From Bacteroidota bacterium (GTDB lineage Bacteria > Bacteroidota > Bacteroidia > NS11-12g > UBA9320), in contig WGNA01000011.1 in assembly GCA_016124755.1 (NCBI GenBank), forward strand, positions 246,688 through 310,687: 64,000 nt of DNA, given 5' to 3'. The notes beneath the pieces were generated by a model. That model saw only the letters and a list, made by a program, of their open reading frames with translations. It was not told where the DNA came from and did not search any database. Both the position numbers and the translations under genes were made by a program. Position 1 is the stretch's first letter. Each line of letters begins with the position of its first letter. Positions 6,001 to 42,322 of the stretch are shown here, piece by piece.

Positions 6001-6236
6001 ATAAAACCCAGACTAGAAAAACACATGATGCCCAAGCTTTATCAAAAAATCTTCCTTTGTTGGCGGCAGATACTTCATTCGGTTCGGGGTGTAAGGTAGA
6101 TCAGTGGTGAAATGAGAGGTGTTTTGGAGTAAGTGTGCGCGACTTTTCACTATGGCAGGTTGAATTAAATTCGGATATCTGATGGATTTGTATTTCACAC
6201 GACATAATTTTGGTTTTGAAATCCGGTTGAAATATT

Positions 6237-7361
6237 ATGGTCAATTATGCAAAAAAGTTGCTGATTTTTATTAATACGCTTTTGCCAGTTGTTACTACAG
6301 CATGTACTTGTGTTCCTTTTCCAACTTACCGGGTTGATACGACAGAATTGAAAGAGTACGATTTCATTGCCCATGTTTTAATAACCAATGCAAACAGCGA
6401 TACAAATAATATTTCGGATAAAATTGCGACCATTCAAATTCTTGAATTGTTTAAGGGTAGCAATGTAAGTTCAATTCGCGAAGAAGGCAAAAATTCATTT
6501 TGTAAGGTTGGGTTCCTTGACGGAGAGGAATGGGTGGTTTTTTGTAAAATTTATAATGGTGAACTTTACCAAAGTATTTGTGATCGTTATGTGCAAATCA
6601 GAGAATCAGATGGCACAAAAAAGTATGGAGCTGATCACTTGTCGGTTTTGCGTGAATATTATCATCACCCGGAAAAAAAGATTGATGACGGGGTGAACAG
6701 AGAGTATTACCGAAACTGTCAGATTGAGATTGAGGAAAATTATCTGAATGGTAAGTATCACGGTGAAAGAAAGATGTGGTATCCTAATGGTCAGATAATG
6801 CGCATTGATACTTTTGTCAATGGTCACTTATCAGGTCTTTCCAGAAGCTGGTATCCCAACGGTGGTTTGAAATGTACAGGTCTTTATGTAGATGGTGCTT
6901 CGGAAGGGAAGTCGGTGTGTTATTATCCATCCGGACAGATTTCCTCCATTCATTTCGCCGCAAATGGTAAATTAGTCGGACAGTACGTAACATATTTTGA
7001 TACCTCCGAGTCGCTCGATTTTATGTTAAAATCATCTGGTTTGCCAAATGGAGATATTGATTCTTTAATAAGACTGTATAATAAAATTCAAGTACAAGAT
7101 GAATGGATTTATAATGATAAAGGCGAAATCATGATTAAACGGGCATTCAGGAGAAATGGCCATATTGAACATGAGGAAATATTTGTGAACGAACTGAATT
7201 GGGTGACATATATATCTTATCATGAAAATGGGAGGCTTGAATCGGTTGGGTATAAAAAGGATGGGAAAAAATACGGTCATTATCAATGGTACGATGAAAA
7301 TGGCTTGCCAACCCGTGGCTGGGACTATGATGAGGATGGAAGAATTATCAAGAAAAATTGA
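6237..7361 (+). CDS. MORN-repeat (YwqK-like) protein with a signal/lipoprotein N-terminus.
   Basis: Repeated YxNGxxxGxxxxWYxNG units (e.g. WYPNGQIMRIDTFVNGHLSG, WYPNGGLKCTGLYVDG). Confidence 0.55.
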   Translation: MVNYAKKLLIFINTLLPVVTTACTCVPFPTYRVDTTELKEYDFIAHVLITNANSDTNNISDKIATIQILELFKGSNVSSIREEGKNSFCKVGFLDGEEWVVFCKIYNGELYQSICDRYVQIRESDGTKKYGADHLSVLREYYHHPEKKIDDGVNREYYRNCQIEIEENYLNGKYHGERKMWYPNGQIMRIDTFVNGHLSGLSRSWYPNGGLKCTGLYVDGASEGKSVCYYPSGQISSIHFAANGKLVGQYVTYFDTSESLDFMLKSSGLPNGDIDSLIRLYNKIQVQDEWIYNDKGEIMIKRAFRRNGHIEHEEIFVNELNWVTYISYHENGRLESVGYKKDGKKYGHYQWYDENGLPTRGWDYDEDGRIIKKN

Positions 7362-7423
7362 AGAATTAAAGGTCGTAATTTAAGATCTCAATTTTGATCT
7401 AAGAAAGGAAAGCATAAGATACA

Positions 7424-8176
7424 ATGAAATTGATGGATGCCTTACATTCCGTTGTTGAATTTGTTAAAAAGCCCGGTAGCTACGTTATTACGGAACTTTT
7501 GTTGGTTGTTTTTATTCTTTTTGTATCTGTGGTTTATTTTTTATTACGAAACAACAGATTATTTAAGTCGGTAACCACAAATCAAAGGGGAACAGCATCG
7601 GAAAGAAATATGGTTGTGAATCTTTTAAAATCAGGTTTTCAGCCAGAAAATATTTTTCATGATCTTTTAGTTCACAAGGGCAATGATTATTTTTCTCAAA
7701 TTGATTTGGTAGTTCTCACCGATGAGGGGATTCTGGTAATTGAAGTAAAGGACTATAGTGGATGGATTTATGGCAGCGGATACGCAGCACAATGGACAAA
7801 AGTGTTAGCAAAGGGTAGAAAAAAATATAGATTTCAGAATCCTATCAAACAAAATCACAGTCACATTTTGGCATTGAAAAGTATTATTCCGGATTCCCAT
7901 TTGATCCCGTTTTATTCAATCATTGTTTTTTACGGTGATTGCCGGTTAAAGGATATAGACTTTGTGCCGAAAGATACCTATATAGTTAAATCAAGCCGGA
8001 TATTACAGGTTCTCAAACAGATTCGTAAAAATGGTGTTCCGGTTAAATATTGGGATAAATCGGAAGTTATATCGAAGTTGTCAAATGCTGTTATTGATGG
8101 TGGAAGCAAAATCAATCGAAAGCAACATGAGAAAAATATTAGAGACTTATTGGGTAAGGACCGAATTTTTAGATAA
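7424..8176 (+). CDS. NERD (nuclease-related domain) protein with an N-terminal TM helix.
   Basis: NERD core DLVVLTDEGILVIEVKDYSGWIYGS followed by a conserved W..Q. A hydrophobic segment sits at residues ~20-40. Confidence 0.6.
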   Translation: MKLMDALHSVVEFVKKPGSYVITELLLVVFILFVSVVYFLLRNNRLFKSVTTNQRGTASERNMVVNLLKSGFQPENIFHDLLVHKGNDYFSQIDLVVLTDEGILVIEVKDYSGWIYGSGYAAQWTKVLAKGRKKYRFQNPIKQNHSHILALKSIIPDSHLIPFYSIIVFYGDCRLKDIDFVPKDTYIVKSSRILQVLKQIRKNGVPVKYWDKSEVISKLSNAVIDGGSKINRKQHEKNIRDLLGKDRIFR

Positions 8177-8365
8177 TAGTATTCAGACTATGTTAAAGTC
8201 ATAAAGAAATTATTCGTTTCAGCTTTTATATTTGATTCTGAATCATTTGGGAATTCGTGCATAATTATGGTGCCATCAGCATTTTTATCCTCCTAAAATA
8301 TACTGATATCAAACTATGAATGAAATTTTGGTTTGGATACCTGCCTGCGATTTTATGATAAAAAT

Positions 8366-8950
8366 TCATTTCACCCCTTTGGGGTTGAACGTCCTCCTGT
8401 GTAGATTGTTTTATAATAATATCACCCCTTTGGGGTTTTGCAAACTCTGTGTAGTTTGTTTTATAATAATACCACCCCTTCGGGGTTTCACATACTCCTT
8501 TCCTTTGTTTTTATAATAATGCCAACCCTTCGGGTTTTACAACCTCGTTCACAAGATGTTTAATGGCAATTTCAATCCTTCTGGTTTACAAACCCTTGTT
8601 CAGAAGATCGATTTAGATTAATGCAAACCCATAAGGTTTGAGAACACCTGATCGCAGAGGATTTGTTTACTCTGAAAATTTATTTCAACGATCATAACCA
8701 ATCCCGAAGGGATGCAATGATTATAAAACCACACAAATGCAAATCCCAACCCCGAAGGGGTGACACATTATGGGAAATTAACTCGGGATTATAACCTGTG
8801 GTGTATAAGCTTTCCCACGAAGAAATAGTTCAGAAGAAAGATTGTTTAGGTATCACCCCTTCGGGGTTTACCATTCTCGTTTAGAGGTGTTTTTATAATA
8901 ATGCCAACCCTTCGGGTTTTATAACGATTTAGTATAAAAATTAGAGTTAC
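8366..8950. repeat. Array of about 10 degenerate ~50-bp units. Each carries a GC-clamped tetraloop hairpin (CACCCC-TTYG-GGGGTT or its reverse complement CCCC-GAAG-GGG) and a TGTTTTATAATAAT flank. The array fills the convergent intergenic region.
   Basis: Units start at about 8370, 8421, 8470, 8520, 8569, 8622, 8697, 8739, 8851 and 8902. Units G and H are inverted. The inter-hairpin segments are partly conserved (ctgtgtagattg / ctgtgtagtttg). Confidence 0.7.
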
Positions 8951-8985
8951 TAAAAATAGATTTAATAAAAAAACCTTTTTCCTGA

Positions 8986-10047
8986 TCATTCCCGCAAATA
9001 CTTCACGATCTCGTTCCTTCGTCCGGACGAACCGCCGTGCAGCACCCATTCCTTTATCCCGTTTTCGTTGTAACCAACAATTGCAGGAAAAGAATTGCCG
9101 GTGATGTTAATGGGTTCTTTATATCGGTAATACAAAAAAGGATATTGTTTTTTATTAATGTAATTGAGCAATTCATCTCTTCCGTTATTTACATTAACTA
9201 CAATAATATCTTTGGGATCCACTTCCCCTTTTTCTACCGATTCCATCAATAGATTCTTTACAATTGAACAGCCGGCACACCCGATAAAACTGTAGATCAC
9301 AACTTTTTTACCGGGTCTTAATTCTAAAGAAGTTAATGATTCGAGATCCTCAAAAAAGTTTAAGGAATCGTGCAATGTAAACGTAAGCATATTGCTTACC
9401 GGAACCGGTGTTCGGATTATCCGACTCGTAAAAAAAGAATCTGAGGGCTTGTCCTCCAGAATTTTAATATTAAAAATAGTGGAATCATACGCGTCAAATC
9501 TTTTTAGGCTAAAAATTTCGGTTACCAACGGACACACTTCGCCGGAGTCAATGGAGCAACTACTCTTAACATGTGCAAGGTTTAAACGATCATATAATTT
9601 CCATTGAAAATTGTTAGAAGTGGATGTACATTTTTGGCACTTCCAAAAAAATCCGGGGTTATTAAATTTTCGCATTAATAATGAAAATGCACTACCGGGT
9701 CTTTCTAATTCAGTCTTTTGAATTTCCTGACCAGAAGGACGGTTATAAACAACTTTATCTCCGGAGAAATGAAAAGTACCCCAGACATCCATACCGTGAT
9801 ACGATTTGAATTTAGCATCTTCAATGAACAGATACGCACTGTCTTTCTGGATTTCCCCGGTCATCTTATCATAATTTACCGAATACACCATGAGGTGTTT
9901 TCCGATAAGTGGTGCTGTTTGTTTATGAATGGATTTTTTGGATGAACTACACGACAATCCCGCCATTGCAATTATCAAACAGATAAAAATGGAGTATTTC
10001 ATGGGCAAACAAGTTAAGAGTTTAAAGCGGATATCAAATCTGTACAA
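8986..10047 (-). CDS. Thioredoxin-fold lipoprotein with a CxxC motif (CAGC). The probable start is MKYSIF at 10002.
   Basis: Lipoprotein signal IIAMAGLSCSS. The C-terminal region reads IYSFIGCAGCSIVKNLL, a thioredoxin-like CxxC. Confidence 0.45.
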   Translation of the reverse strand: MYRFDIRFKLLTCLPMKYSIFICLIIAMAGLSCSSSKKSIHKQTAPLIGKHLMVYSVNYDKMTGEIQKDSAYLFIEDAKFKSYHGMDVWGTFHFSGDKVVYNRPSGQEIQKTELERPGSAFSLLMRKFNNPGFFWKCQKCTSTSNNFQWKLYDRLNLAHVKSSCSIDSGEVCPLVTEIFSLKRFDAYDSTIFNIKILEDKPSDSFFTSRIIRTPVPVSNMLTFTLHDSLNFFEDLESLTSLELRPGKKVVIYSFIGCAGCSIVKNLLMESVEKGEVDPKDIIVVNVNNGRDELLNYINKKQYPFLYYRYKEPINITGNSFPAIVGYNENGIKEWVLHGGSSGRRNEIVKYLRE

Positions 10048-10118
10048 CCAACTCGAAATTAGTAAAAATGTGAGCAGTGTCGCATTTTTGATTTATCATA
10101 TTTTAGGTTCAGGGTGAT

Positions 10119-10424
10119 TTGAGAAAATGCTTCCCTTACCTTCGCTTCGTGTCTCAAAAGCAGGTTAAAATTATTGTAACCGGGAAAGTTCAGGGTGTGT
10201 ATTTCCGGAAGTTCACCCAGATTCAGGCAAAGACTTTAGGTGTTACCGGCTATGTGAAAAACCAAGCCGATGGAAGCGTTTTTATTTATGCATCCGGAAC
10301 GGAAGACCAATTAAAGGAACTCGAAAAATGGTGTTACAAAGGCTCTCCTTTTTCTAAAGTGGAAAAAGTGGATGTACGGGCAACACATGAACAGGAATCG
10401 CATTCCGGTTTCGAAATTTTCTGA
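10119..10424 (+). CDS. acyP: Acylphosphatase. An alternative GTG start at 10149 would give the typical ~90 aa length.
   Basis: Signature VxGxVQGVYFRKFT plus GYVKNQADGSV. Confidence 0.75.
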   Translation: MRKCFPYLRFVSQKQVKIIVTGKVQGVYFRKFTQIQAKTLGVTGYVKNQADGSVFIYASGTEDQLKELEKWCYKGSPFSKVEKVDVRATHEQESHSGFEIF

Positions 10425-16819: not shown

Positions 16820-17200
16820 CTGTAACTGTAACAGTAGCGAGAGCTAAAGAGAAAGAGCCGGAGAGACGCTGAATAATAGAAATTCTGAGCGTGCGAAGAA
16901 TCCCTTTTATCTGAATCGAACTACGTCATTCTGAGCGAAGCGAAGAAACTGTAGAAGTTCCTGCATTTTTACTGTTCAGTTGCTTCACTTTGCAAAACTT
17001 GATCTGAGACCGTTACCGTTACCGTTACTGTTTCCGTTTCTTCGCTTCGCTCAGAATGACGGCGGCTTTTTGGGGAAATCGGGGATTCTTCGCGAGCTAA
17101 GAATTTTAATCGCTCTCCCGCTCTTTTGCTCTGTGGCTCTTGTTACTGTTACCGTTACTGTTACCGTTACCGTTACACACCCCGTTTCCAATACCTTTGC
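16812..17200. repeat. Two inverted copies of a ~185-bp composite element. It consists of (GTAACN)n hexamers, an AGAGCGAAAGAGC-type purine tract, an AATTCTGAGC..GCGAAGAATCCC hairpin and GTCATTCTGAGCGAAGCGAAGAAAC. Together they form a ~390-bp imperfect palindrome centred near 16975.
   Basis: The reverse complement of 17010-17200 aligns with 16812-16960. A third copy lies at 32455-32650. Confidence 0.75.
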
Positions 17201-32454: not shown

Positions 32455-32650
32455 GAGCGGTAGCGGTAACTGCAACGGTAACTGCAACGGTAACTGCAAC
32501 GGTAACCGTAACGGTAACAAGAGAAGGAGAGCGAAAGAGCTGGAGACAGGAGAGCGATCAAAATTCTGAGCCAGCGGAGAATCCCGATTTTCCCCAAAAA
32601 AAGACCGTCATTCCGAGCGAAGCGAAGATACCCAAACAGTAACGGGAACG
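32455..32650 (+). repeat. Third copy of the ~185-bp composite element: (GTAACTGCAACG)n hexamers, a purine tract, the AATTCTGAGCCAGCGGAGAATCCC hairpin and GTCATTCCGAGCGAAGCGAAGA.
   Basis: Aligns module-by-module with 17010-17200 (reverse complement) and 16812-16960. Confidence 0.7.
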
Positions 32651-40402: not shown

Positions 40403-40475
40403 GCCACCTTAGCTCAGCTGGTAGAGCAGCTGATTTGTAATCAGCCGGTCGTTGGTTCGAGTCCGACAGGTGGCT
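40403..40475 (+). tRNA. tRNA-Thr (anticodon TGT).
   Basis: Cloverleaf read by hand. Acceptor GCCACCT/AGGTGGC and anticodon loop tTGTaa. Confidence 0.85.
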
Positions 40476-40483
40476 CTTAATCC

Positions 40484-40564
40484 GGGGAGATACCAGAGCG
40501 GTCAAATGGGACGGACTGTAAATCCGTTGCTTCGGCTACGTAGGTTCGAATCCTACTCTCCCCA
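40484..40564 (+). tRNA. tRNA-Tyr (anticodon GTA) with a long variable arm.
   Basis: Acceptor GGGGAGA/TCTCCCC. Anticodon loop ctGTAaa. TTCGAAT T-loop. Confidence 0.85.
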
Positions 40565-40676
40565 CTCGTTATTTGGCAAGTCCGAAAGGTTGTTGAGGAT
40601 GACCTTTCAGAAAAGTTAAGAACGCTTGTGTTCGGTAGAGTGAAGTTGATCTTCACAATACAGGATACAAAAATTT

Positions 40677-40749
40677 GCGGGAGTAGCTCAGTTGGTAGAG
40701 CGACAGCCTTCCAAGCTGTAGGTCGCGGGTTCGAGCCTCGTCTCCCGCT
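40677..40749 (+). tRNA. tRNA-Gly (anticodon TCC).
   Basis: Acceptor GCGGGAG/CTCCCGC. Anticodon loop cTTCCaa... read as cttCCaa with TCC. TTCGAGC T-loop. Confidence 0.8.
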
Positions 40750-40845
40750 CAAGCCGGTTGAATTTCGGGTTTCCGGATTTCAACCGGTTAGGGTTTTTAG
40801 CCAATGACGCTCTGAATAATCCGGTGAAATTGGCGAAGAATTCAA

Positions 40846-40917
40846 GCCGATGTAGCTCAGGGGTAGAGCGTTTCCTTGGTAAGGAAGAGGTCGTGGGTTC
40901 AATTCCCATCATTGGCT
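40846..40917 (+). tRNA. tRNA-Thr (anticodon GGT).
   Basis: Acceptor GCCGATG/CATTGGC with one G-U pair. Anticodon loop ttGGTaa. Confidence 0.8.
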
Positions 40918-40999
40918 CAAAGGTGATGAAAGACTCACCAAGATTTTTTAACAATCCTCATAAGAGAAACAAAACAAAAAGTAACATTATTTAATCGTC

Positions 41000-42187
41000 A
41001 TGGCTAAAGAAACATTTGACCGTTCCAAACCACACGTAAACATCGGAACGATCGGTCACGTTGACCACGGTAAAACTACCCTGACCGCCGCCATCACAAC
41101 AGTTCTGGCGTCACAGGGTCTTGCTGAAAAGAAAGATTTTGACACTATCGACTCTGCTCCCGAAGAAAAAGAGCGTGGTATCACGATCAACACAGCACAC
41201 GTGGAGTATCAAACGGCAAATCGTCACTATGCTCACGTTGACTGTCCGGGTCACGCTGACTATGTAAAGAACATGGTTACTGGTGCGGCTCAGATGGACG
41301 GAGCTATCCTCGTGGTAGCATCTACCGATGGTCCTATGCCACAAACCAAAGAGCACATCCTTCTCGCTCGTCAGGTAGGTGTACCTAGACTGGTTGTTTT
41401 TATGAACAAAGTTGACATGGTTGACGATGAGGAATTGTTGGAGCTTGTTGAAATGGAAATTCGTGAACTGCTCGACTTCTATGGATTCGATGCAGACAAT
41501 ACACCAATCATCAGAGGATCTGCCCTTGGCGGACTCAACGGTGAAGAAAAATGGGTGAACACCATTATGGAACTCATGAGCGCAGTAGACGAGTGGATTC
41601 CGGTTCCTCCAAGATTGGTTGATCAGCCTTTCCTTATGCCAGTTGAAGACGTGTTCTCAATCACTGGTCGTGGAACAGTTGCTACAGGTCGTATCGAAAG
41701 AGGTGTCATCAAAGTTGGTGAGCCTGTTGAGATCGTAGGTATGGGTGCAGAGAAACTTACTTCTACCTGTACAGGTGTTGAGATGTTCCGTAAGCTCCTC
41801 GATCAGGGAGAAGCTGGAGATAACGCCGGTATTCTTCTGAGAGGTATTGAGAAAACCGATATCCGTCGTGGTATGGTTATCTGCAAGCCGGGTTCAGTTA
41901 AACCACACAAAAAATTCAAAGCTGAGGTTTACGTACTTTCTAAAGAAGAAGGTGGACGTCACACTCCATTCTTTAACAAATACCGTCCACAGTTCTACTT
42001 CAGAACTACAGACGTAACAGGGGAAATCATGTTGCCGGAAGGAACCGAAATGGTTATGCCTGGTGATAACGTTACTATTACTGTTGAACTTCTCAACCCG
42101 GTAGCTATGGAAAAAGGACTCAAGTTCGCGATTCGTGAAGGCGGTCGTACCGTAGGTGCTGGTCAGGTAACTGAAATCCTCGAGTAA
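41000..42187 (+). CDS. tuf: Elongation factor Tu.
   Basis: [28 protein letters not shown] and the full-length EF-Tu sequence. Confidence 0.97.
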
Positions 42188-42249
42188 TCGGAATAATAAT
42201 TTTGCGGGATCCGCGGGTGCTTCTGCATCCGCGGACTTCCTGTAAATAA

Positions 42250-42322
42250 AGGAGAGTAGTTCAATTGGTAGAGCAGCGGTCTCCAAAACCGCAAGTTGCA
42301 GGTTCGAGCCCTGTCTCTCCTG
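42250..42322 (+). tRNA. tRNA-Trp (anticodon CCA).
   Basis: Acceptor AGGAGAG/CTCTCCT. Anticodon loop ctCCAaa. Conserved tuf-tRNA-Trp-secE arrangement. Confidence 0.85.

Follow-up and report, generated by a model that had tools for sequence, protein, structure and literature searches.

In the arrangement known as the REPtron, described for TnpA-REP (PMC3333891; PMC6006769), a single-copy Y1/HUH gene is bracketed by inverted copies of a repetitive extragenic palindrome (REP). TnpA-REP cleaves and recombines single-stranded bacterial interspersed mosaic elements (BIMEs), and the model put forward is one of transposition followed by local amplification (PMC3333891). The insertion sequences (IS) of the IS200/IS605 family are devoid of terminal inverted repeats and have one active strand; they carry subterminal hairpins with a guide sequence located 5' of the hairpin foot (PMC3333891). 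Here we compare with these systems an array of short hairpin units found at positions 8366-8926 of a 64,000-nucleotide stretch of a Bacteroidota genome (contig WGNA01000011.1, positions 246,688 to 310,687, forward strand), this whole stretch being referred to below as the window. The array is probably a cluster of REP-type elements having a 153-amino-acid Y1/HUH endonuclease as partner, in a REPtron-like arrangement. Its units belong to a repeat family with a covarying stem, which recurs between genes with no orientation bias, amplified by local duplication and linked to that protein.

One group of Y1 proteins is of particular relevance. Subclass 1.2 of TnpAY1, described by Quentin, Siguier, Chandler and Fichant in 2018, is characterized by the motifs DH[IV]H, WQ and Y---Q--HH (YIKNQKEHH), a median length of 148 amino acids and a specific C-terminal domain (PMC6006769). 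Its hosts are Cyanobacteria and Bacteroidetes, and it is present at 1.7 copies per genome with 36% identity versus 4.8 copies at 99% identity for true IS200 (PMC6006769). The subclass is listed as 'REP: no' and is generally without IS200-type terminal structures (PMC6006769). The REP search of that study required a GTAG or GTGG tag lying 0-2 nt from a stem with 7 bp or more and no unpaired position (PMC6006769), and was blind to the units reported here because these have a 5-bp stem tagged with TATAATAAT.

A sequence-only reading of the window had proposed about ten degenerate units with a 50-bp period, and both place and period were confirmed, since ten units of about 50 bp were recovered at 8366-8926, in the gap between two convergent genes. 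Tandem Repeats Finder reported 8372-8546 with a period of 50, 3.5 copies and 78% matches, while a repeat search of the window returned a direct family of 6 copies (D1, spacings of 50, 50, 50, 52 and 280 bp) with inverted copies at 8698-8714 and 8746-8762. When as many as 3 mismatches were tolerated, the 15-mer CACCCCTTCGGGGTT matched 8 times in the window, always inside 8372-8919, compared to a mean of 1.33 matches in shuffled windows (0 of 100 shuffles reached 8). Scanning the 64 kb with a covariance model of the unit (R1) scored 8 units within 8368-8926 and no unit elsewhere in the window. Two more, below the R1 threshold, are visibly decayed (CAATCCTTCTGGTTT at 8573 and AAACCCATAAGGTTT at 8625), which brings the total to ten, with the orientation string ++++++--++. 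The units are as follows.

8368..8393, plus strand: unit 1, R1 score 18.9 bits over model positions 17-42 only; core CACCCCTTTGGGGTT at 8372-8386, 5' TATAATAAT flank missing or diverged.
8403..8444, plus strand: unit 2, complete, TTTTATAATAAT-AT-CACCCCTTTGGGGTT; R1 score 50.9 bits, E value 8.5e-11.
8453..8494, plus strand: unit 3, complete, TTTTATAATAAT-AC-CACCCCTTCGGGGTT; R1 score 52.3 bits, stem 8474-8478 : 8482-8486, DNA fold of -3.7 kcal/mol.
8503..8544, plus strand: unit 4, complete; R1 score 49.0 bits, stem CAACCC...GGGTTT with a compensatory change from C:G to A:T.
8553..8594, plus strand: unit 5, decayed, ATGTTTAATGGCAAT-TT-CAATCCTTCTGGTTT; 63% identity to the D1 reference, below the R1 threshold, no stable hairpin.
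8605..8646, plus strand: unit 6, decayed, AAACCCATAAGGTTT; stem kept and loop altered, 71% identity in D1, below the R1 threshold.
8693..8734, minus strand: unit 7, R1 score 35.3 bits; stem CATCCC...GGGATT (compensatory T:A), involved in inverted-repeat pairs I1-I4.
8741..8765, minus strand: unit 8, hairpin part only (CACCCCTTCGGGGTT); R1 score 21.3 bits, inverted-repeat pair I5 95% complementary to 8850-8868.
8851..8875, plus strand: unit 9, hairpin part only; R1 score 22.5 bits, forming an inverted pair with unit 8 with 83 nt between them.
8885..8926, plus strand: unit 10, complete; R1 score 49.8 bits, member of D1 and 97% identical to unit 4.

The decay of similarity along the array that had been noticed in the sequence was also found, the identities between neighbours being 0.88, 0.84, 0.72, 0.80 and 0.68, and the units most alike in the window are neighbours. 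A compensatory series can be followed within the array itself, from CACCCC/GGGGTT to CAACCC/GGGTTT and CATCCC/GGGATT. Units 7 to 10 (8693-8926), which run as '--' then '++', allow a long cruciform-type pairing, and the segment 8685-8935 folded as single-stranded DNA (ssDNA) gave -43.9 kcal/mol (z of -5.5). Their polarity is the one found on the flanks of Y1 genes in other genomes, with the innermost pair formed by units 8 and 9. A search by tblastn and with a hidden Markov model (HMM) for a Y1 gene remnant between these inverted units, at 8766-8850, left no trace of one. The copy in the window is an unremarkable, partly decayed member, and the interest lies in the family that it reveals.

The core of the unit reads TATAATAAT-N-T-CA-NCCC-TTC-GGGN'-TT and is about 27-30 nt long. 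From 5' to 3', it consists of the motif TATAATAAT, a spacer of 2-3 nt ending in C, a 5-bp hairpin (A-N-C-C-C, a TTC loop and G-G-G-N'-T), a conserved T and a T-rich linker of about 20 nt. The AT-rich flank pointed out beforehand is indeed conserved, and the motif TATAATAAT is kept across phyla. The hairpin had been described as a 4-5-bp clamp closed by a YNCG/GNRA-type tetraloop (CCCC-TTCG-GGGG), a description in which one G is counted twice; the actual structure is CA-CCCC-TTC-GGGG-TT, with a 3-nt TTC loop.

Covariation fixes this register. In an alignment of 121 distinct units (A1), in which column 33 lies outside the search pattern, the pair 23:33 was UA in 44 units, CG in 35, GC in 34, AU in 7 and UG in 1, and was never unpaired. 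Its covariation score was 0.281 versus 0.046 in shuffled alignments (0 of 500 reached the observed value), and did not exceed 0.043 in slid registers. In the TTC-triloop register 99.5% of cells pair, against 72.9% when the partner is slid by one column into the UUCG tetraloop register, which was rejected. The same pair holds in 93% of 414 further units found with an HMM and not matching the scan pattern, whose consensus is T-A-T-A-A-T-A-A-T (64-97% per position), N, T (75%), C (93%), A (98%), N, CCC, TTC, GGG, N', TT. Compensatory conservation of the stem had been named beforehand as the test by which the idea of a hairpin could be refuted; the test was run and the stem covaries. To judge from these comparisons, the hairpin appears to be maintained by selection. 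That the loop and the CCC/GGG are invariant and the unpaired flanks conserved suggests that the unit is recognized by a protein rather than having a generic structural role.

An exact scan with the pattern TTATAATAATNNCANCCCTTYGGG over one genome per species (596 Gb) gave at least 149 matches in at least 120 genome blocks, where by our own estimate about 1 match would be expected by chance at 40% GC. The repeat family is therefore real, far above chance. Among the matches listed, the hosts are mainly Bacteroidota, of many orders, and Ignavibacteria (Melioribacteraceae), together with a Calditrichaceae metagenome-assembled genome (MAG), a few anammox Planctomycetota (Brocadia/Jettenia) and one Nitrospirota MAG. 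The cultured carriers listed are Pedobacter changchengzhani, Melioribacter sp. Ez-97, Brumimicrobium aurantiacum, Dyadobacter sp. CY345, Emticicia aquatilis and Sinomicrobium weinanense. Several separate contigs of one assembly could be matched by the exact pattern (at least 5 in JANLOW01 and at least 4 each in WFZY01 and JBDRHR01). The unit had 0 matches among 2.9 million viral contigs, and a phage origin was rejected on this ground. Searches of Rfam, at the gathering threshold and at E values up to 10, returned no relevant family and only chance matches to snoRNA and miRNA. No description of the repeat was found in the open-access papers searched, a prior account elsewhere being possible.

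Scanning of 121 loci with the HMM yielded 572 units in 164 clusters of 1 to 16 units. Although crude open reading frames (ORFs) cover 79% of the sequence, 559 of the 572 units lie outside them and only 13 inside. Units are found as singles, as inverted groups ('++--' in 12 clusters, '+-' in 10, '--++' in 4) and as long one-strand runs, and same-strand units are spaced with a peak at 45-54 bp. The linkers between same-strand units, taken over all loci, contain 48% T and 11% C on the unit strand. An identity of 80% or more is reached by 24% of adjacent linkers in the same array, versus 0.2% for linkers from different loci (p=1e-20); since adjacent linkers are related, arrays grow by local duplication and diverge later. 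Composite tandem repeats of 280-317 bp, each comprising 2-4 units in a fixed '+ - -' or '+ +' pattern, were also observed (locus L003, 6150-7000; L112, 58-905; L023, 2662-3496; L035, 3928-4704), which indicates that composite blocks are amplified besides single units. The alternative proposed from the sequence alone, that of a REP/BIME-like cluster, was supported: the unit is an apparently dispersed intergenic palindrome, present as singles, inverted pairs and tandem clusters and, as described below, as inverted flanks of a Y1/HUH gene.

In four loci of the single Nitrospirota MAG, about 70 nt are shared directly 5' of the first unit (L038, around 124-193; L077, around 6142-6211; L087, minus strand; L118, around 2198-2267). 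This sequence holds an 8-bp inverted repeat, CTGTGCAG ... CTACACAG, and could mark where a different repeated or mobile element, abutting the units, ends. The related CTGTGTAG is present in linkers of the window array.

To look at genes accompanying the units, an all-against-all BLASTP was performed on 702 crude ORFs from the pattern-found loci. One family stood out: its 31 members came from 30 of 120 loci, had a median length of 153 amino acids and lay at a median of 15 bp from the closest unit. The other recurrent families were of the housekeeping type (ABC-F ATPase, FabG, GcvP, NtrC-type regulator and similar proteins). The 153-amino-acid family matched Pfam Y1_Tnp at 88 bits and NCBIfam transpos_IS200 (NF033573) at 65-67 bits for a cut-off of 55, and its nearest solved structures are the ISDra2 TnpA chains (2xm3, E value 2e-4). 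The H.H and YI..Q..HH motifs are conserved in at least 90% of the family, and the consensus of 27 proteins contains dH.H, sWQeGyG and YIlnQe.HH, with a tail of about 30 amino acids after the tyrosine motif. Pairwise identity among 27 loci ranges from 50 to 88% (median 69%). The family is large, with at least 8000 clusters at 90% identity (E value up to 1e-10), and the best 120 database matches to an Ignavibacteria query, 80-90% identical to it, came from several phyla.

Regardless of gene strand, 16 of 27 full-length Y1 genes carried a '-' unit to their left and a '+' unit to their right at no more than 300 bp, and 8 more had a correctly oriented unit on one side. The gap between unit and gene is often 0-16 bp, and the TATAATAAT side faces the gene with the hairpin facing away. 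To avoid ascertainment bias, the link was also examined from the protein side, using five Y1 homologues (from Jettenia, a Bacteroidota MAG, Runella and two metagenome contigs) chosen without reference to the DNA. In the 150 kb of their loci, 62 of 65 R1 matches were located within 800 bp of the Y1 gene, and all five genes were flanked, mostly by '-' on the left and '+' on the right. Among the other three matches, one (locus L122) overlies the 3' end of a neighbouring Methylase_S gene, 733 bp from Y1, and two represent a weak distant match in loci L130/L131.

Two further observations concern the surroundings of the Y1 gene. The unit-flanked gene was found inside type I restriction-modification operons, flanked by hsdS and hsdM in Jettenia and by hsdR and hsdM in Runella (L122/L123, 7903-12572; L126, 6982-12204; L127, 2734-5715). 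The genome of the window has a type I restriction-modification operon just past the right end (L133, 5067-12520, about 62.9-70.3 kb in window numbering), with no units and no Y1 gene in it. When loci L124 and L125 were compared over 7367-9994, the Y1 protein and the right-hand genes were identical, and the left gene content (two unnamed ORFs in one, PsiE and TerC in the other) and the number of units differed; because gene content differs to the left of the cluster, the unit cluster coincides with a break in synteny.

These features can be set against those of the REP, BIME and REPIN elements of E. coli, Pseudomonas and Stenotrophomonas and their RAYT proteins. Common to both are a short palindrome that lies outside genes and bears a conserved, single-stranded tag on its 5' side, the occurrence as singles, inverted pairs and tandem clusters with local amplification, units far outnumbering genes, and a single-copy Y1/HUH gene bracketed by inverted copies, as in the REPtron. 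The differences lie in the stem, which published searches expect to be of at least 7 bp in classical REPs (PMC6006769) and which has 5 bp and an invariant TTC loop in our units; in the partner protein, which is of class 1 (IS200-like) whereas the RAYT of classical REPs is of class 2; and in the distribution, classical REPs being species-specific (PMC6006769) whereas the core of the unit is kept across phyla. On the protein side, the comparison of motifs only, rather than placement in a tree, matches the 153-amino-acid protein to TnpAY1 subclass 1.2: it shares with the subclass DHIH, WQ and YILNQExHH, a length of 153 amino acids, a C-terminal tail of about 30 amino acids, a low copy number and Bacteroidetes hosts. 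It departs from it in one respect, since the subclass was published as REP-less whereas the Y1 genes here carry flanking units. With IS200/IS605 elements such as IS608 and ISDra2, the system has in common the Y1/HUH transposase fold and the logic of a substrate made of a hairpin and a 5' guide; these elements differ in that IS ends are not inverted and that the whole IS moves, in many near-identical copies, whereas here the gene appears to be single-copy, the flanks are inverted and it is the short units that multiply.

By analogy with E. coli TnpA-REP and IS608 TnpA, the Y1 enzyme would bind the hairpin of the unit on transiently single-stranded DNA, with the 5' motif TATAATAAT being read as a guide or recognition sequence, and would cleave and rejoin it nearby. 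The catalytic role of the Y1 protein, the ssDNA nature of its substrate and the guide role of TATAATAAT are all taken from these relatives. In such a scheme, units may be inserted at further sites between genes and multiply there into tandem and inverted arrays, which subsequently decay through mutation, and the array of the window would represent one locally amplified, partly decayed cluster.

Several points weigh against a REP-type system partnered by a Y1 enzyme. The classical GT[AG]G (or CGTC) foot tag is absent, the tag of the units being TATAATAAT-N-T-C at 2-3 nt from the stem, and the protein scored only 27.2 bits with the NCBIfam RAYT model (NF047646), for a cut-off of 80. The ssDNA hairpin has a free energy of -2.9 to -3.7 kcal/mol with z of -0.8 to -1.9, no significant gain over shuffled sequences; as the hairpin is thermodynamically unremarkable, the case was built on covariation. 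Covariation itself depends on essentially one variable pair, and a palindromic binding site in double-stranded DNA would yield the identical pattern, although a hairpin is the more economical explanation because the conserved flank is on one side only and the partner enzyme is specific for single strands. The pattern used to gather the loci leaves little of the core free, so that the conservation of TATAATAAT is partly built in, and the 414 'free' units were likewise chosen with an HMM. Finally, no Y1 gene was found in the window or in the next 7 kb beyond its right end, and these approximately 71 kb of the genome contain a single cluster of units. In short, the element works like a REP, yet it lacks both the GT[AG]G tag and the species specificity of classical REPs, and its partner is not recognized by the RAYT model.

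One of the other explanations is that the units are ends or miniature derivatives (miniature inverted-repeat or palindrome-associated transposable elements, MITE/PATE) of an ordinary IS200-type IS, the arrays being debris of it. With 65-67 bits, the protein exceeds the NCBIfam cut-off of 55 for the IS200/IS605 equivalog and bears the corresponding NCBI name, and subterminal hairpins with a 5' guide are what the ends of IS200/IS605 contain (PMC3333891). Against this, the flanks are inverted copies of one and the same unit, with the ('-','+') order in 16 of 27 cases, while IS200/IS605 have no terminal inverted repeats (PMC3333891). Moreover, a single copy of the Y1 gene was present in 29 of the 30 8-kb loci holding one, and the published copy number of subclass 1.2 and its identity (1.7 at 36%) differ from those of true IS200 (4.8 at 99%; PMC6006769). 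Units far outnumber genes, arrays without any gene exist, and the viral contigs yielded 0 matches in 2.9 million, which all speak against such debris. We regard this explanation as improbable.

An origin as stacked bidirectional intrinsic terminators, which would stop transcription of the convergent NERD-domain and 338-amino-acid genes, had been one of the options offered by the sequence-only reading and is improbable as the reason for the array. It is true that the array sits in a convergent gap, that each hairpin is followed by TT and a linker with 48% T, and that the scan marked two units as terminator-like on the minus strand; Rho-independent terminators, too, consist of a G+C-rich hairpin with a T-rich stretch behind it, located between genes. 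REPs of E. coli are in addition known to influence 3'-end stability, such roles being among those listed in the introduction of PMC8266576. The T-runs noted behind some hairpins are weak, and terminator-like sites are not enriched, a terminator scan of 7300-10200 having found 4 sites versus 2.5 +/- 1.9 in shuffled sequence. As RNA, the hairpin of a single unit reaches only -4.4 to -6.8 kcal/mol with its 5-bp stem. The genomic setting is equally unfavourable. When the clusters next to a Y1 gene were left aside, 55 of 78 clusters in other genomes lay between co-directional genes, 14 between convergent and 9 between divergent ones; among the units nearest a gene 3' end, 40 had the direction of the gene and 53 the reverse (p=0.21), and the unit nearest a gene 5' end pointed toward the gene in 28 cases and away from it in 48 (p=0.03). 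These counts are unlike those of terminators or promoters. Terminators need neither an invariant loop, nor an invariant CCC/GGG, nor a conserved single-stranded 5' motif, all of which indicate sequence-specific recognition; the units further differ from them by the invariant stem, the lack of orientation preference and the tandem multiplicity. A side effect of the units nearest to genes, in the form of 3'-end stabilization or partial termination, is possible.

The least probable explanation, very remote in our view, is that of a non-coding RNA or guide array, be it CRISPR-like, ToxI-like or a battery of small RNAs (sRNAs) started from TATAAT-like boxes: the 50-nt period divides into about 30 conserved and 20 variable nt, the conserved CA of the unit is preceded by TATAAT at a distance of exactly 6 nt, like a sigma-70 -10 box and its start site, and promoter-like matches are listed in the window scan, but these matches are not enriched (14 vs 11.5 +/- 3.9), the variable parts are related by descent and are not independent spacers, one array can contain units of both orientations, the surroundings of the arrays show no recurrent cas, tnpB, toxN or other effector family, and Rfam returned no match. 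The housekeeping promoters of Bacteroidota, moreover, use TTTG / TAnnTTTG rather than TATAAT. The CRISPR-like and ToxI-like versions were rejected on account of the interrelated linkers and the absence of a recurrent effector gene, and a promoter battery on account of the lack of promoter-site enrichment and of the 48 units pointing away from gene 5' ends versus 28 toward. A source of small RNAs, also suggested from the sequence alone, found no support either in Rfam or in the placement of the units, which do not face genes or turn from them in the way expected of a transcript.

The two genes on either side of the window array are context and lie outside the element.

7424..8176, plus strand: NERD-domain gene (Pfam PF08378, 86.5 bits).
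8986..10002, minus strand: gene for a 338-amino-acid orphan protein, convergent with the former.

After the protein of the window itself, the next-best NERD protein is 59% identical, and NERD genes are absent from the gene families recurrent near units in the loci of other genomes. The 338-amino-acid protein has no Pfam match, and its sole match among 5.8 billion proteins is itself (hypothetical protein GC181_09285, Bacteroidetes MAG). Elsewhere in the window, five tRNA genes are clustered at 40403-42322 on the plus strand, and tandem repeats of short period (6, 12 and 18 nt) occur at 17009-17176 and 32458-32518 (ACCGTT, GTTACC/GTTACTGTTACC and CGGTAACTGCAA x4.6), which are probably in-frame coding repeats.

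Interpretation of the window array as a cluster of REP-type elements has practical consequences. Two Logan short-read contigs from the same sample, which match the window exactly, end inside the array at 8535 and 8892, and the array explains these breaks in short-read assembly. In annotation, such arrays are not to be labelled as terminators, CRISPR-like arrays or sRNA genes. The putative pair formed by the enzyme and its site spans phyla and has an unusually well-defined recognition sequence, with a guide motif, an invariant loop and one free base pair that are open to direct testing in cultured hosts, and it might furnish a new HUH tag for the covalent coupling of proteins to ssDNA.

A broader proposal, to which we would give even chances, is that these elements form an undescribed REP system of the FCB group (Fibrobacteres, Chlorobi and Bacteroidetes), in which a class-1, subclass 1.2 Y1/HUH enzyme is matched to a cognate core of about 27 nt (TATAATAAT-NT-CA-NCCC-TTC-GGGN'-TT) that is near-constant across several phyla. 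With its repeat and its protein both conserved, such a system differs from the REP/RAYT pairs of Proteobacteria, which co-diverge fast and are species-specific. If the proposal is true, this would point either to an old and strongly constrained host function in the processing of single-stranded DNA or to repeated transfer, across phyla, of a tightly matched enzyme-site pair. It would also provide a function-related partner for a Y1 subclass that had none, and would carry the REP/RAYT paradigm from Proteobacteria and Cyanobacteria over to Bacteroidota, Ignavibacteria and their allies.

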